From the NCBI GenBank assembly GCA_016180085.1, contig JACPBX010000036.1:1-12859 (forward strand): DNA of 12,859 nt, read 5' to 3'. Source of the DNA: Candidatus Woesearchaeota archaeon. Its GTDB lineage: Archaea; Nanobdellota; Nanobdellia; Woesearchaeales; UBA10216. Under the pieces are notes generated by a model, which did no database searches, had not been told where the DNA came from, and saw only the letters and a program-made list of their open reading frames with translations. This document shows, in pieces, positions 2,131 through 7,325 of this stretch (position 1 is its first letter; every line of letters begins with the position of its first letter). The translations under genes and the position numbers were made by a program.

Positions 2131-2219
2131 TTATTTAAACTTTGCCTTTTTGATGCGTGAGCTGAAAAATCAGTTTAGGCGATTTTTCCAAACGCGGAAT
2201 TTGGAAAAAATATTTAAAC
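2131..2219. promoter_or_regulatory. Divergent archaeal promoter region (corA / methyltransferase) with two TATA-like boxes and inverted repeats
   Basis: TTATTTAAAC at 2131-2140 reads TTTAAATA on the minus strand, towards corA. TATTTAAAC at 2211-2219 follows an A-rich BRE-like run and lies about 27 nt before ATG 2246. Inverted repeats at 2164-2188 and 2183-2209. Confidence 0.5.
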
Positions 2220-2245
2220 GCGCCAGAGGCAGTTTTGCAATTGTC

Positions 2246-2773
2246 ATGAAAAAGCAGGTTTTCAGGTTATTGGCAAATTTTGTTTTTCGGACAGGGCAAT
2301 TCAATAACAGGTCTGTAAGGGAATTTGCACAGCGAATCAGGGATAAAACTATTCTGGAGCTGGGCAGTGGGAGGATGGAAGGGGGGAAATACAGTTACTC
2401 CCTGAGGCGTTTTTTTGACCGTTCCAACAGGTTCCTTCAGTCCGATGTTGTTAAGGAGTTCGGGCACAGGGTTGTAGACGTAACGAAAATGAATTACAAA
2501 AGCGAGTTTGATGTCATACTGTGCACCAATGTTTTGGAGCACGTGTTTGATTTTCATAAGGCTGTTGTTAACATTTATGCTGCTTTGAAAAGCGGCGGCG
2601 CGGCAGTGATTTTTGTCCCGGCATTTTATCCCTTGCATGATGAGCCGAATGACTTTTGGAGGTTTACGGAGCACTCCCTGAAAATTCTGCTTAAGAAGTT
2701 CAGGAGAGTTGAAATCAGGCACAGTGGTTTGCGCCAGTATCCTTTCGCGTATTACGTTGAGGCATACAAATAG
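2246..2773 (+). CDS. Class I SAM-dependent methyltransferase (Methyltransf_11-like)
   Basis: Motif I ILELGSG, acidic motif LQSDV, then FDVILCTNVLEHV and LKSGG. The start is placed at ATG 2246 rather than TTG 2150 because a TATA-like box sits inside the extended ORF. Confidence 0.85.
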   Translation: MKKQVFRLLANFVFRTGQFNNRSVREFAQRIRDKTILELGSGRMEGGKYSYSLRRFFDRSNRFLQSDVVKEFGHRVVDVTKMNYKSEFDVILCTNVLEHVFDFHKAVVNIYAALKSGGAAVIFVPAFYPLHDEPNDFWRFTEHSLKILLKKFRRVEIRHSGLRQYPFAYYVEAYK

Positions 2774-2803
2774 GATTTAAGCCGCTCTGCAAAGGCTTTG
2801 AAC

Positions 2804-2839
2804 ATGCTAAAGATTGACGGAGGTTAGTTGGAGGGTTAA
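2804..2839 (+). pseudogene. Decayed remnant of the rtcA 5' end (MLKIDGG*LEG*)
   Basis: ATG CTA AAG ATT GAC GGA GGT TAG TTG GAG GGT TAA aligns without gaps to the start of the intact rtcA at 4383 (MIKLDGSYGEG). Five of 11 residues are identical (M, K, D, G... E, G pattern), with L/I and I/L swaps, and TAG falls at the Tyr codon. Same strand, 30 nt after the methyltransferase stop. It is short, so chance similarity cannot be fully excluded. Confidence 0.7.
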
Positions 2840-4382
2840 AATTTGCTTTTTCGGGTAATAGTTACCGGAAATCTTACGAAATAAAGCACTGGACACTGGA
2901 CAGATGCCCGGCGAGGGTATATAAACTACTTCTTCATAAGGCTCGGATGACCGCAGAGCTGCCAAAATTGTGATTTTCCCTTGCGCGGCAAGGTCGGCTT
3001 TACAACCTAAAATCACATTAGGCAGCTCCGCTTAAAGTCCTCCTCGCCAAACTACGGAGGTTTCTTTCCTAATGGAAGAAACCTCAACGCGTGATTGAGG
3101 TTTCAGGGGTAAAGAAAATGGTAAAAATAGATTTGCATTTACAAAAATCATTAACTAGCTATAAGAATAAATCTCCCTCTGTTAAGACTCTTATTCATTG
3201 GTACGATTTATATGAAAGACATAGTATCAAAATCGAAAATAACTTTCTGCTTCTGCTTTTAAGAAGGGCTATCTACAAAGCAGGCAATATATCAAATTTG
3301 GGTAAAGAACTTCATATTTCCAGAAAAGTCCTCTCAACTCTGCTTCATGGAAGGTATAACCCAAAAATTATTACTTTAAGAAAAGTAGCAGAGTATGTAA
3401 ACTACCCTTTAAATAAGATTGATAAAAAAGTTATCGAATTACGAAACCTCAAGCCAAACCTCCCTTTTAATCTTAATACAAAGGAAGGTGCGGAGATAAG
3501 AGCAGCTTTTTTATCTGATGGCCATAACGATAAAAATCCTGCAGGTAAGCCACAATATTGTGCTTTAGAGAAAGAATTGCACGTACGTTTGATTGAGCTT
3601 TGTGGCATAGTTTTTGGTGCTTTTAAAGCTAAGACAATTTTTAACAACAGATCATATATAACACGCTTTCCCGCGGTTTTGGGTTCTGCCCTAAAACTAA
3701 GCGGAGTTCCGAGAGGGAGTAAGCAAATAGCAAATTGCTATGTGCCAAAAGATATATTTCTCGGGAGTAAACAAATCCAAACGGCTTATTTAAGAAGATG
3801 TTTTGATGATGAAGGCGATGTTTGTTTTGATTCTCATGGAAAGCGTGCAGTCAGATTGGCAAGAAGCGTTGATATAACTACTAGCTGCAATTGGAATAAT
3901 CTCCCTTCTGAGAAATGGATAAGGTACAATTTGCCTGACACAATCAGAAATAATTTGCTGTTTGGGGAATGGCTTTTGCTTCTCAGGCTAAAAATAGACG
4001 CCAGATTTTATCCTGAAGGCATATACCTCTCTAAAAATAAGCAAATTACAGCAAAATGGCGAATACAAATTGGTCAGCAAGATAATGTGCGTAGATTCTC
4101 GAACTTGATAGGTTTCAATTTAAGAAACAAAAAAGAAAAATTGAGTAAAATGATAAATTCCTACAAATTTAGAAAACTACCAAACGGCGAAGGGAGAAAA
4201 CAGGCATTATTCTTTATCAGGAAAGTTTATAATGAGAAAGGCTACTTCCAATTTAATGACTTGGGAAAAGAATTAGTTGCTGGTGGCAGGAGTCACGATT
4301 TAGCAGGCATGTATTTAAAAGAATTTATCGAAAGGGGTCTCATTAGCAAAGTTAAGCGCGGAATTTATATTTTTAAGCAAAA
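2840..4382 (+). mobile_element. Putative free-standing homing-endonuclease element inserted at the rtcA 5' end (structured non-coding region plus LAGLIDADG ORF)
   Basis: Bounded by the rtcA remnant on the left and the intact rtcA start on the right. Much more AT-rich than the flanks: by hand count 15/60 G+C at 3121-3180 and 17/60 at 3601-3660, versus 38/60 at 4681-4740 in rtcA. Exact boundaries are inferred. Confidence 0.6.
2849..3104. ncRNA. Candidate structured RNA/leader of unknown family
   Basis: Complementary segments: 2849-2858/2862-2871; 2910-2917/3041-3048; 2953-2963/3021-3031; 2969-2977/3009-3017; 2979-2984/2988-2993; 2992-2996/3003-3007; 3057-3069/3074-3085; 3078-3087/3095-3104. 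No convincing tRNA, SRP, RNase P or group I core motifs were recognised. Confidence 0.5.
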
Positions 4383-4386
4383 ATGA
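3118..4386 (+). CDS. Double-motif LAGLIDADG (DOD-type) endonuclease-like protein with an N-terminal XRE-like HTH and a C-terminal winged-helix-like region
   Basis: Motif 1 is AEIRAAFLSDGH and motif 2 is AYLRRCFDDEGDV, both with acidic residues at the catalytic positions. HTH-like GNISNLGKELHISRKVLSTLLHGRYNPKIITLRKVAEYV; C-terminal YLKEFIERGLISKVKRGIY. No intein splicing blocks (no N-terminal C/S block, no terminal HN). ATG 3118 has a GGGGT SD (3106-3110); the track's GTG 3091 lies within a hairpin. Confidence 0.8.
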   Translation: MVKIDLHLQKSLTSYKNKSPSVKTLIHWYDLYERHSIKIENNFLLLLLRRAIYKAGNISNLGKELHISRKVLSTLLHGRYNPKIITLRKVAEYVNYPLNKIDKKVIELRNLKPNLPFNLNTKEGAEIRAAFLSDGHNDKNPAGKPQYCALEKELHVRLIELCGIVFGAFKAKTIFNNRSYITRFPAVLGSALKLSGVPRGSKQIANCYVPKDIFLGSKQIQTAYLRRCFDDEGDVCFDSHGKRAVRLARSVDITTSCNWNNLPSEKWIRYNLPDTIRNNLLFGEWLLLLRLKIDARFYPEGIYLSKNKQITAKWRIQIGQQDNVRRFSNLIGFNLRNKKEKLSKMINSYKFRKLPNGEGRKQALFFIRKVYNEKGYFQFNDLGKELVAGGRSHDLAGMYLKEFIERGLISKVKRGIYIFKQK

Positions 4387-5498
4387 TAAAATTGGATGGC
4401 TCATACGGTGAAGGCGGAGGTGCCATTTTGAGAATGGCTTTGGCACTCTCTTCTATTACTCTTCAACCCTTCGAGATTGTCAACATCCGCAAAGGGCGCC
4501 CTAATCCAGGCCTTCAGCCGCAGCACTTGGCATGCATAAAAGCCTTGGAAGATCTTTGCAACGCTTCTTCGGAAGGCGCTGAGGCAGGTTCTGCGACGGT
4601 AAAATTTTTTCCAGGCAAAGCTCAATCCCGCACATTAAGCATTGATATCGGCACTGCCGGCTCAGTTACTCTGCTGCTGCAGGCTGTTCTGCTCCCGGCA
4701 TTGTTCGCTCCAGGGAAGGTCCGCCTCAATCTGGCAGGCGGCACAAACGTGATGCGCAGCCAGCCTGCTGAGTATTTCAGCGAGGTTTTCCTTCCTCACA
4801 CAGCTCGTTTTGGCAGCTGCAGCTTTTCGCTATTGCGGCGGGGGTATTTTCCTAAGGGTGGCGGGAAGGCGGAGCTTGAGATAAGGCCGCTTTTCCGCCT
4901 TGGTGACTACGACACTTTTGCAGATTTCAGGAAAGCCGTTTCGCAGCAACTGCCAGGAATAAACCTGGCTGAAAGGGGAAAGCTCCTGAAAATAGCCGGG
5001 ATATCGCATGCCTCAGCGGATTTGAAAAAGGCTGAGGTTGCTGAAAGGCAGGCGCATTCAGCGAAGATTTCGCTTTCTCGGCAGCTGCTGAAAATTGGCA
5101 TAAGCTGCGGGATAACCATCCGGGCAGAGTACTCAGAATCCTTTTCAACAGGTTCAGGGATAACACTGTTTGCTTATTTCTCGGCTGCTGGAAAGGATGA
5201 CATTGATGCTGCCAATCCTGTAATTCTTGGCGCTGATGCGCTTGGCGAGCGTGGCAAAAAGGCCGAGGTTGTTGGCCAGGAAGCTGCAACTGCTTTGGTC
5301 AGGGAAATAAGCTCAGGGGCGTGCGTTGACCATTATCTTGCGGACCAGCTCATTCCTTTTATGGCCATTGCCGGCAACAGCAGGATTCTGACTTCGGAAG
5401 TAACAAACCATTGCCTTGCCAACATGTTTGTCGTGGAGAAATTCCTTGGCAGGTGCCTTGAGGCAGATAAGGAAAGAAAAGTGGTTCTGACTATTTGA
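4383..5498 (+). CDS. rtcA: RNA 3'-terminal phosphate cyclase
   Basis: DGSYGEGGGAILR, IR-GR--PGL--QH, GTAGS, GGT, RGYFPKGGG and YLADQL motifs. The adenylated His context is present (VTNHCLAN, equivalent to SCHLLTN in E. coli). The start overlaps the upstream stop (ATGA). Confidence 0.95.
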   Translation: MIKLDGSYGEGGGAILRMALALSSITLQPFEIVNIRKGRPNPGLQPQHLACIKALEDLCNASSEGAEAGSATVKFFPGKAQSRTLSIDIGTAGSVTLLLQAVLLPALFAPGKVRLNLAGGTNVMRSQPAEYFSEVFLPHTARFGSCSFSLLRRGYFPKGGGKAELEIRPLFRLGDYDTFADFRKAVSQQLPGINLAERGKLLKIAGISHASADLKKAEVAERQAHSAKISLSRQLLKIGISCGITIRAEYSESFSTGSGITLFAYFSAAGKDDIDAANPVILGADALGERGKKAEVVGQEAATALVREISSGACVDHYLADQLIPFMAIAGNSRILTSEVTNHCLANMFVVEKFLGRCLEADKERKVVLTI

Positions 5499-5502
5499 AC
5501 TA

Positions 5503-7209
5503 TTATCTGAGCGAAGCCAGCTTCAAGTCGGCTTCAACCTCAAGGATTTCGTACTCCATCTCTTTTTTCTCGTTCATCGTCATGTAGACTGTGTTGAAGA
5601 CAGACTGAGCCTGCTCAAGCGCCTTTTGGGCTTCGTCAACGTTGTTTTGCCGTATGTGCTGCTTTGCCTCTTCCAGTAGCGCCTGCAGCCTTTCTTTTCC
5701 GTATTCCCCTCCAAGCCTCAGGTCCGGCATCCCTTTCAGTTCCTGGGCAAAGTCCGGCAAGCGTTCAGGCTGCTCTGCCAGTAATGTCTCTTGCCTTTGC
5801 ACCGTGAGCCTGTGCTTCCTCATGAATATCCCAAACTTCTTCCTTTCAATTTCTCCTTTCTGCTTTATCAGCTCGTATCTTTTTCTGGTGATGTCAAGCT
5901 TGTTGGCGTTTAGCTCTGCTTCCTCGCTGCTTAGCTCCTTTTCATGTCTGTCCAGCTCCTCCTCTTTCCTGTCAAGCTCTGCCTCTTCGGGCGTTTTTCT
6001 TTCCCTTGCCTTTTTTATTCCCCTTGCGGATTCCCCTGCAACTTTTTCCTCGGAGGCCGGCAGCTCTTGCATTTCCTCTCCCATTCCTTCCTCAGCTTCT
6101 TCTTTCGTTTCTTTTTCTTTCCCTTTCCCGCTGCCCTCTGCCCATTGTGCATAGTGGGGCTCAAGCTCAGCAGCTTCTGCGTCTGATTTTTGATCCCTGT
6201 CAGCCTTGCCTGGCCTGAATTCGCCCATTCCTGTCCTTGGCGTTTCTGGCATCCCGAACTCTTCGCCAAGCTCCCCAAGATCTTCCAGGCTTGGCAGTTC
6301 AGGCACTGTGCCTTCTTTTTGCACTATCTCCTCTTCCCGATTGCCTTGCATGCCGGCTTGGGCCTCTGGATGTTCTTCTGCAAATAGCTCAGGAATACTC
6401 CCCTCCTTGTATGGAGTTTCAGGAATCTTGGGGAACTCAGGAAGTTCAGGCACCGCCTGCACCGCCTCTTCAGGGCCTTTTTTCTTGAATGGCCAGAACC
6501 ACCTTCCTGGTTTTGCAGTGCGCTTGGCTTCTGTAGTTTCTGCTTCTTCAGTTTTTTCAGTTATTGGGGGGATTTCAGGCAGCTTTAGTTCCAGTTCATC
6601 GCCAAGCCTTTCTTTTTCAATTTGCGTTTCCTGCGCTTCTTTTGGCATCTCAATCCCATCCTTCGCCGGTTTTATCTCTGCAGCAGCCCTCGCCCTCACA
6701 AGTTTCCTGGCTGGTTTTGTTGCTTTCATTGTCTTTGCAGCCGCCATTGCTGCCGTTTCCGCTTTTCTCCTTGCGGTCTTGAGGTTCAGAATTTCTTTTT
6801 CTACATACCTTGCGGCTTGCAGCCTGCCTTTTGCGCTTCTAAGCTGGCCAGCGAGCTTGTCATCGTTCACTATTTCCTTTACCCACTCGGCAATGTCATT
6901 CCGCTCCTCGTTCACGTGCTCCTTGTAGTCAGCCGCCTTCATTTTCTTCAGCGCTGTGGCAAGTTCTTTCAGGCTCTTTACAGTTGCGCCGTTATTAAGC
7001 CAAAGGGCCAGCTCCGGCTCAACCTCTTCCTTCGCATTTAAGGCTGCCTCAGCGCCCTCCCCAGCTGCCTGCTCTGATTCAATCTCTCTCGCAGCTGCGA
7101 CATCTATTTTTTTTAAGAATTCCGGCTCTTCCTGTGCAGCTGCAGCAGCTAAGGTGCTAATTGTATCTTCTCTTTTTTTGCCTAGCTTCAAAAAGCCGAA
7201 TAAGCCCAT
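5503..7209 (-). CDS. Large acidic hypothetical protein with a DUF5752-like domain, a disordered E/P-rich linker, a coiled coil and a C-terminal helical module
   Basis: LWLNNGATVKSLKELATALKKM---YKEHVNEERNDIAEWVKEIVNDDKLA resembles the DUF5752 pattern as recalled from Woesearchaeota proteins (not searched). ATG 7209 (MGLFGFLK) is preceded by GAGGGGG. Confidence 0.7.
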   Translation of the reverse strand: MGLFGFLKLGKKREDTISTLAAAAAQEEPEFLKKIDVAAAREIESEQAAGEGAEAALNAKEEVEPELALWLNNGATVKSLKELATALKKMKAADYKEHVNEERNDIAEWVKEIVNDDKLAGQLRSAKGRLQAARYVEKEILNLKTARRKAETAAMAAAKTMKATKPARKLVRARAAAEIKPAKDGIEMPKEAQETQIEKERLGDELELKLPEIPPITEKTEEAETTEAKRTAKPGRWFWPFKKKGPEEAVQAVPELPEFPKIPETPYKEGSIPELFAEEHPEAQAGMQGNREEEIVQKEGTVPELPSLEDLGELGEEFGMPETPRTGMGEFRPGKADRDQKSDAEAAELEPHYAQWAEGSGKGKEKETKEEAEEGMGEEMQELPASEEKVAGESARGIKKARERKTPEEAELDRKEEELDRHEKELSSEEAELNANKLDITRKRYELIKQKGEIERKKFGIFMRKHRLTVQRQETLLAEQPERLPDFAQELKGMPDLRLGGEYGKERLQALLEEAKQHIRQNNVDEAQKALEQAQSVFNTVYMTMNEKKEMEYEILEVEADLKLASLR

Positions 7210-7325
7210 TACTTCCCCCTCTTTTACTGCTCCCGGCACTAAAAACCGTTATTGCTGCTATTTAATACTTTTGATTTTTAAAATTGCAAATCTTTTTAAA
7301 GCTCCTGCTGTTCCACCCTCTTGGC

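Follow-up and report, generated by a model that had tools for sequence, protein, structure and literature searches.

The window analysed here is a 12,859-nucleotide (nt) stretch of DNA from a Candidatus Woesearchaeota archaeon (contig JACPBX010000036.1 of assembly GCA_016180085.1), in which a LAGLIDADG endonuclease gene stands between a truncated and a complete copy of the 5' end of rtcA, the gene for RNA 3'-phosphate cyclase. Comparison of the window with related loci suggests, with a probability of about 0.85, that the insert is a free-standing homing-endonuclease cassette whose target is formed by the codons of the conserved Y-L-E-G-G-G-Q motif of rtcA. The layout given in a preliminary description of this DNA, namely a dead 11-codon start followed by a LAGLIDADG open reading frame (ORF) and a complete rtcA whose start overlaps the endonuclease stop (ATGA), is present in the sequence as stated. 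All coordinates are positions in the window, and the numbered labels L, G, C and P denote comparison loci, genomes, contigs of the same genome and proteins, respectively.

Truncated rtcA starts and their common break point

The truncated start (stub) was evaluated with a position matrix built from residues 2–17 of 45 rtcA N-termini, which was run over the six frames of the 1-Mb genome. Among about 2 million positions, rtcA itself scored 57.3, the stub 17.0 and the next best match 9.8, so that the stub, second only to rtcA genome-wide, is more than a chance resemblance. It follows an ATG, lies on the same strand as rtcA, 1.6 kb upstream of it, and has in-frame stops at codon 8 (TAG, 2825–2827) and codon 12 (TAA, 2837–2839). 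The starts of six rtcA genes of the same genus read M-[IL]-K-[IV]-D-G-[SG]-[YH]-L-E-G-G-G-Q; the stub fits this pattern, Leu9 included, and fits the same-genus N-termini better than the live start at 4383 does. At the DNA level, 24 of its 33 nt are identical to L119, the closest relative, and about 26 of 33 to the rtcA start of genome G007, with the likeness to the rtcA of relatives stopping after coding nt 32. These results agree with the earlier proposal that the stub is the resident rtcA start.

A recount of the identity between the stub and the live start gave the same 18 of 33 nt as reported before. The accompanying statement that all third codon positions after the ATG differ holds for nine of the ten codons; codon 2 shares its third base (CTA vs. 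ATA). A recent tandem duplication is excluded because the stub is nearer to the alleles of the genus than to the live copy. The same observation bears on the idea that the stub arose by chance resemblance, local tandem duplication or misassembly. Such an origin might be suspected from the shortness of the stub (33 nt) and from the leader that follows it, a repeat at which assemblers can mis-join, and it is hardly credible given that the matrix score is a genome-wide outlier, that the flanks are syntenic with those of empty-site relatives and that the same layout occurs in unrelated assemblies. A chimeric join is unlikely, since the left flank (a CorA gene) and the right flank (rtcA followed by a minus-strand gene of about 520–580 codons) adjoin each other in endonuclease-free relatives. 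In addition, two public assemblies of independent origin reproduce the right junction, L120 with 4 differences and L121 with 1.

Scanning of the endonuclease-bearing loci with the rtcA matrix revealed stubs just upstream of the endonuclease gene in four further lineages (L072; L092/L093; L094 with L096/L097; L073), in keeping with the expectation that other element-bearing loci would share the stub–endonuclease–rtcA layout. The spacers that follow the stubs in these lineages differ from each other and are 35–175 nt long. Thus, an endonuclease gene flanked by a full rtcA and by a fragment of the same rtcA end, the arrangement that characterizes a terminus-replacing element, was found in the window, L072, L092, L094, L096 and L073. 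A stub is also present in the endonuclease-free locus L023 (genome G024), in which a 10-codon stub, located some 94 nt before rtcA, is separated by a spacer of 66 nt from a Gly9/Ala14-type live start. This stub was missed by the 16-residue matrix and found by a 9-residue matrix, with a score of 19.2; across 2 Mb of six-frame sequence, no positions other than rtcA and the window stub score above 16.2. Judging from these features, L023 is probably a cassette from which the endonuclease gene has been deleted.

In all six stub cases, the likeness to rtcA ends at coding nt 30–33, inside the codons of E-G/G-G (the slash marks the break). That lineages independent of each other, with unrelated spacers, share one break point is as expected of a site-specific endonuclease. 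The existence of L023, with its stub, 66-nt spacer and new start in the absence of an endonuclease gene, could also indicate that the mobile or regulatory unit is a short restart module (stub, spacer, new start and the first ~12 codons), in which the endonuclease is a later passenger. This is very unlikely: the break point is centred in a conserved coding stretch of about 20 bp, as the target of a LAGLIDADG enzyme would be, every locus has the endonuclease stop within the new rtcA start, so that the two are physically one unit, the spacers vary between lineages while the endonuclease is conserved, and a full cassette that loses its endonuclease gene becomes exactly the short module.

The endonuclease family and its linkage to rtcA

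Searches of protein databases yielded 65 clusters that are 36–72% identical to the window endonuclease, the closest homologue being P0004 (72% identity). In Pfam, the window protein itself gives weak helix-turn-helix (HTH) matches only and no LAGLIDADG match at E ≤ 0.01, while LAGLIDADG_3 (PF14528) is matched by 26 of 29 aligned relatives. In the alignment of 29 sequences (A2), the two LAGLIDADG helices are invariant, and so are the catalytic acids at their ends, Asp143 and Glu241 (numbering of P0001); in the window gene these acids are encoded at 3517–3519 and 3811–3813, respectively. The AlphaFold2 model obtained from alignment A2 has a predicted local distance difference test score of 91.4, and its best Foldseek matches among solved structures are the TliVMA and PI-PfuI intein endonucleases, I-Tsp061I and I-DmoI, with WhiA ranking lower. 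A Foldseek probability of 1.00 was obtained for 7qsu, 1dq3, 2dch and the I-DmoI entries, and the model contains the tandem alpha-beta-beta-alpha-beta-beta-alpha fold. A profile search against PDB sequences retrieved the HTH domain only; the nuclease core was recognised by the fold search. The accessory domains consist of an N-terminal Xre-type HTH and a C-terminal winged helix, the latter with AbiEi_4 matches in five members. On the basis of sequence and model, the product of 3118–4386 is a predicted monomeric double-motif LAGLIDADG endonuclease with the fold of archaeal homing endonucleases.

The association of this family with rtcA was explored using five homologues looked up in public assemblies and 39 loci from two collection scans. 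All of the five homologues are located directly upstream of rtcA and overlap it, and their own upstream neighbours vary (acetyltransferase, mechanosensitive channel, HAD hydrolase and others). In all loci with DNA beyond the endonuclease stop (about 40, of which ~28 are distinct, from DPANN metagenomes), rtcA is the next gene, with an overlap of 4–20 nt. The commonest overlap is 14 nt, which places the stop inside the Ile4–Asp5 codons of rtcA. The endonuclease stop thus lies within the rtcA start, and a transfer of the whole gene therefore takes an rtcA start along. In many linked loci (e.g., L058, L064, L074, L076), the apparent rtcA starts are TTG or GTG codons inside the last codons of the endonuclease gene, which, as far as sequence can tell, fits termination–reinitiation rather than an independent start.

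The family is sporadic and rare: a scan of about 185,000 species genomes gave 9 loci. Nine further genomes of the same genus were searched without finding the endonuclease gene; one of them has a 30%-identical paralogue elsewhere. The gene is also absent within 1.5 kb of 19 related rtcA loci. A weak paralogue match in the unpublished genome G154 was left out of account. As expected of a homing element, it is therefore present or absent at one fixed site among close relatives and, where present, always stands at the rtcA start. The G+C content is lower in the endonuclease gene than in rtcA in 22 of 22 loci; in the window, the values are 35% and 52%. As a further signal of mobility, the pairwise divergences of the endonuclease and of the linked rtcA are only moderately correlated (r = 0.55) and conflict in both directions. 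In the pairs L088/L090 and L072/L092, the endonucleases are 90% identical while the rtcA genes are 66–72% identical, and when L101 is compared with L070, L071, L083 and L090, identities of 37–39% for the endonuclease stand against 67–68% for rtcA.

The features of the protein and of its linkage were also weighed against the possibility that it has been domesticated as a regulator or DNA-binding partner of rtcA, having reached the genome through ordinary recombination along with an rtcA 5' end, and does no homing today. A gene pair that is strictly kept and overlapping, intact frames of about 420 codons in 65 clusters, two extra DNA-binding domains, the presence of WhiA among the fold matches and the shared synteny of some lineages would all suit such a role. 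WhiA is a domesticated LAGLIDADG protein that lost its catalytic acids. In the present family the acids are invariant, with no loss of the WhiA kind, the gene is distributed sporadically and was not found in the other genomes of the genus, and converted tracts occur without it; stubs breaking at one nucleotide position in independent lineages would be left unexplained. Domestication is consequently an unlikely explanation, and the homing cassette is preferred.

Some family members carry rtcA-like sequence at their own beginning as well. In four of them the N-terminus is clearly of the rtcA type (M-I-E-I-D-G or a near variant). The first six codons of rtcA are fused in frame to the endonuclease in P0043, P0045, P0032 and P0039, and at 995–1012 of L070. 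To judge from these sequences, in a part of the family the endonuclease is evidently fused to, and translated from, a captured rtcA start. The N-terminus of the window endonuclease, M-V-K-I-D, has a 5-mer score of 5.8, which is equalled by about 4 in 10,000 random M-starts. It may be a trace of an older captured rtcA start, in which case the locus would contain three rtcA starts in series; the signal is weak here.

Converted rtcA alleles, a possible homing route and related systems

The rtcA gene of the window (Pfam RTC, E = 6e-73, with the profile matched from position 1) has a mosaic 5' part. Past the first ~26 codons, its product is 81–84% identical to same-genus proteins, while its start differs from them at four positions that are invariant in the genus (residues 4, 9, 14 and 18), with Gly9, Ala14 and Met18. 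Compared with L011, the closest allele overall, the nucleotide identity is 79.5% past codon 26 and 63% in codons 9–26; compared with L106, it is 94% (51/54 nt) in codons 9–26 and 74.8% elsewhere. Binomial tails are 1.8e-4 for the contrast with L106 and 0.004 for that with L011. Over codons 13–26, L106 and the window are the same at 42 of 42 nt. Thus, the fragment resembles the native alleles and the end in use is divergent, as in host genes made mosaic by an invading element.

The converted tract is present without the endonuclease or a stub in L106/L107 and L108, and the first six codons of L106 resemble the window stub, not the window live start. A possible reading of these sequences is that L106 and L108 are alleles from which recombination of the stub with the live start removed the endonuclease, or that were converted without gaining the gene. 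The public sequences L120 and L121 map to 3008–4448 and 3041–4460 of the window, respectively, with an identical endonuclease protein and 1–4 nt differences. Both contigs end inside the repeated leader on the left and at the end of the converted tract on the right. Such ends hint at branching of alleles, and several alleles may coexist in the samples.

The target motif itself varies with linkage. The canonical E-G-G-G-Q is found in none of the 22 distinct endonuclease-linked rtcA genes: the last position is Ala in 13, Ser replaces the first Gly in five (four of these retain Gln and one also has Ser at the last position), and four have other changes. Among the unlinked rtcA loci, E-G-G-G-Q occurs in 15 of 21, and the Ala form in exactly L023, L106 and L108, each of which has other footprints of the element. 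Read at the sequence level, the within-genus cases show the motif change travelling with the element.

Several observations weigh against a homing cassette. The counts of motifs in linked and unlinked genes are neither phylogenetically independent nor corrected, many occupied loci have no stub, and the left junction in the window is supported by one assembly only, that of the present contig. A downstream EF-1-beta gene is common to several marine lineages, and the endonuclease–rtcA pair may therefore be long vertically inherited there, which fits a role useful to the host too. Finally, the leader that precedes the endonuclease gene (see below) is native to the genus, so that not all of the present cassette is foreign; it would have been assembled inside the genus or have spread within it.

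Taking these points together, the following route is proposed for the cassette. The enzyme would cut an endonuclease-free rtcA near coding nt 30–34, a position suggested by the six independent stub break points. During repair from an occupied allele, the right end would pair with the donor rtcA downstream of the cut, and copying would run back through the donor rtcA start, the endonuclease gene and the leader; the left end would pair with the donor stub or be joined illegitimately. The recipient would thereby retain its own first 11 codons as a dead stub, followed by the cassette and by a new start on its own rtcA body, with conversion extending a few dozen bases into rtcA, here to about codon 26. 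In later rounds, the stub could serve as a left homology arm. No splicing would be involved. Translation of rtcA would begin at the new start and, given the overlap with the endonuclease stop seen at every locus, is probably coupled to translation of the endonuclease gene. Since the new start restores a continuous target-like sequence, it must be resistant under this scheme; its recoding at nearly every third position, together with the changes of Leu9 to Gly and Gln14 to Ala, presumably prevents self-cleavage and limits recombination with the stub.

The closest published parallel is provided by the WHO elements at FBA1 of Torulaspora and Lachancea yeasts, the model for which is backed by cleavage experiments (Coughlan et al. 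2020, eLife; PMC7282813). As in the rtcA cassette, a free-standing LAGLIDADG-type gene lies beside a full-length host gene, a replacement gene end is carried along and no RNA or protein splicing takes part, the old end being left as a fragment able to act as a homology arm and the host gene being mosaic (PMC7282813). In WHO elements, cleavage has been demonstrated and the replacement end confers resistance (PMC7282813), whereas for the rtcA cassette both are predicted from sequence. Moreover, WHO elements replace the 3' end (PMC7282813), while the rtcA cassette replaces the 5' end and must therefore also bring a start codon and expression signals. The protein of WHO elements is a zinc-finger fusion of intein origin, in contrast to the HTH, two LAGLIDADG domains and winged helix of the rtcA cassette protein, and WHO elements home in meiosis in a eukaryotic nucleus, whereas the rtcA cassette resides on an archaeal chromosome.

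Gene hybrids are also formed by the mobile ORFs (mORFs) of fungal mitochondria, at atp6 of Allomyces macrogynus and at atp6, atp9, cox2 and nad3 of Glomus (PMC3630166). They share with the rtcA cassette a LAGLIDADG or GIY-YIG ORF that sits within coding sequence and is accompanied by a foreign copy of a gene terminus, as well as a native terminus close to that of relatives and a divergent inserted one (PMC3630166). They differ in that the C-terminus is replaced and the genomes are those of organelles (PMC3630166), compared with N-terminal replacement and translational restart in an archaeon.

Intronless homing is known from free-standing endonucleases of phages, such as SegG and MobE of T4. 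These have a free-standing gene beside the target, co-conversion of flanks and self-protection by target polymorphism in common with the rtcA cassette, but they sit between genes and leave no gene fragment, while the rtcA cassette lies inside a coding sequence and has a duplicate start. I-DmoI, I-Tsp061I, PI-PfuI and the TliVMA intein endonuclease, the best structural matches, have the same catalytic fold; they depend on a splicing host element, which the rtcA cassette lacks, and the latter adds an HTH and a winged helix.

The principle of terminus replacement having been published for mORFs (PMC3630166) and WHO elements (PMC7282813), any claim of novelty has to be tempered. No paper was found that links LAGLIDADG genes with RNA 3'-phosphate cyclase or that describes such cassettes in DPANN archaea. 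What appears new is an archaeal chromosomal family with 5'-end replacement, translational restart and a dedicated HTH–LAGLIDADG–winged helix endonuclease, and the visibility of all stages of the homing cycle at one site. The cassette would extend to Archaea an intron- and intein-free invasion of coding genes, in which the end of a gene is replaced and the gene is restarted. With naive, occupied, endonuclease-deleted and converted-only alleles at one site, the homing cycle becomes directly testable, and so does the cost that target-site resistance imposes on a conserved enzyme motif. Annotators are warned that short upstream ORFs resembling the start of the gene itself can be scars of such homing. 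The enzyme, which has two accessory DNA-binding domains and whose target of ~20 bp is predictable, is in addition a candidate for a new specificity in the LAGLIDADG toolbox.

Promoter, leader and neighbouring genes

The features of the locus are listed in Table 1. The insert of about 1.55 kb was described earlier as AT-rich, which is correct for the endonuclease ORF and not for the 280 nt before it (2840–3117), where the G+C content is about 44–46%. The endonuclease ORF is taken to start with the ATG at 3118; its frame is open from a GTG at 3091 as well.

Table 1. Features of the rtcA locus in the window
Feature	Position	Strand	Remarks
CorA gene	1055–2035	minus	Upstream of the methyltransferase gene
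Small S-adenosylmethionine (SAM)-methyltransferase gene	2150–2773	+	A 30-nt spacer separates the gene from the stub ATG
Putative decayed promoter region of resident rtcA	2774–2803	+	Loose alignment with the TATA-containing stretch before rtcA in L119, L106, L108 and L011
Dead stub, resident rtcA start, codons 1–11	2804–2836	+	Identified by rtcA N-terminus matrix and DNA of relatives
Spacer, left end of the insert	2837–2884	+	No likeness to empty-site relatives; 3' part similar to DNA upstream of other leader copies
Promoter module	2885–2934	+	Doubled heptamer box (2887–2902), then an element like a B recognition element (BRE)/TATA box (2918–2925)
Structured 5' leader	2941–3117	+	Common to free-standing nuclease genes of the genus
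Homing endonuclease gene, 422 aa	3118–4386	+	N-terminal HTH, two LAGLIDADG domains, C-terminal winged helix
First five endonuclease codons, rtcA-start-like	3118–3132	+	Direct repeat D7 with 4380–4398
Replacement rtcA 5' end and converted tract to ~codon 26	4383–4460	+	ATG overlaps the endonuclease stop (ATGA)
Live complete rtcA (RNA 3'-phosphate cyclase)	4383–5498	+	Pfam RTC and RTC_insert
578-aa gene without Pfam family	5503–7239	minus	Downstream of rtcA

Each of the 10 genomes of the genus contains the promoter module, and the present genome has about 16 copies of it before diverse genes. The heptamer CACTGGA forms a doubled box that is followed by GC-rich DNA and a TATA element; this series occupies 2887–2925 of the window and is present at about 15 other sites of the genome (e.g., C42:31056, C15:44965, C21:2332 and C41:1660), several of the genes having BRO-N/antirepressor-like N-termini. 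By its sequence, the combination of heptamer box and TATA element looks like the operator and promoter of one regulon.

The promoter and leader together (~230 nt; 2885–3117, 233 nt) precede three other nuclease-type ORFs of the same genome. The respective leader copies lie at C36:354–533, C18:8191–8429 and C11:5552–5786, and further loci are L110–L114. The leader occurs in all 10 genomes of the genus, with full copies in G004–G008 as well. The genes behind it are unrelated free-standing nuclease genes, among them LAGLIDADG_3 genes, seen in three or more genomes of the genus besides the present one, and an ORF with weak Mrr_cat/LexA matches. Its fold has a z-score of −3.0, with compensatory change in 9 of 58 consensus pairs. 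These distributions suggest that the leader may be a common control element of selfish nuclease genes, and rtcA of the window probably depends now on an expression module native to the genus. At the C11 and C18 copies, the arrangement seen at rtcA was looked for and rejected: both are intergenic, with no coupled downstream gene or stub, and the layout is therefore specific to the rtcA-linked family.

The leader also bears on whether the insert is a spliced intron, either group I or of the archaeal bulge-helix-bulge type, that uses the upstream start. The 280-nt leader is structured and archaeal LAGLIDADG genes are classically intron-borne, yet a splicing insert is highly improbable here, since the stub has a stop at codon 8, the downstream rtcA is complete from its own ATG, the endonuclease ORF has its own start and stop, and the same leader occurs in intergenic DNA before other nuclease genes. 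A search of the whole window against Rfam at E ≤ 1 gave no match, and no ribozyme core, bulge-helix-bulge junctions or intein splicing blocks were found around the ORF. A group I or other intron was rejected as a candidate on the absence of an Rfam match and on the nature of the leader as a genus-wide 5' module of unrelated nuclease genes. The complete rtcA and the early stub stop accord with the original interpretation of the insert as a non-splicing cassette with a replacement rtcA 5' end.

A wider scenario that combines the cassette with the leader and the L023-type alleles is conceivable and remains doubtful. In it, a complete homing cycle, with both autonomous and non-autonomous elements taking part, would be played out at rtcA of DPANN archaea, and short endonuclease-less modules such as L023 would be miniature elements copied into naive alleles by an endonuclease acting in trans. 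Repeated rounds might then force the changes of Gln14 to Ala and Gly11 to Ser into a near-invariant motif and, in this genus, rtcA might also have been put under the regulon-type promoter and the structured leader shared by all of the free-standing nucleases.

In the three closest empty sites (L119, L106/L107 and L108), CorA is followed after 100–170 nt by rtcA and then by the minus-strand gene of ~520–580 aa. Element-free alleles had been expected to place rtcA directly after the methyltransferase gene with a Y-L-E-G-G-G-Q-type start; the start was as anticipated, and the neighbour proved to be CorA. The methyltransferase as the original upstream neighbour was accordingly rejected. The window is L119-like up to a TATA-like element beside CorA, the point at which the methyltransferase gene begins, and because the likeness to L119 ends there, the methyltransferase gene seems, by comparison of sequences, to be a second, independent insertion at the locus. 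The gene is missing from the CorA–rtcA interval of L119, L106 and L108, and in G007 a 63%-identical methyltransferase homologue is found downstream of rtcA. On the other side of the locus, the 578-aa protein gene (5503–7239), tail-to-tail with rtcA, is kept in L119, L106 and L108.

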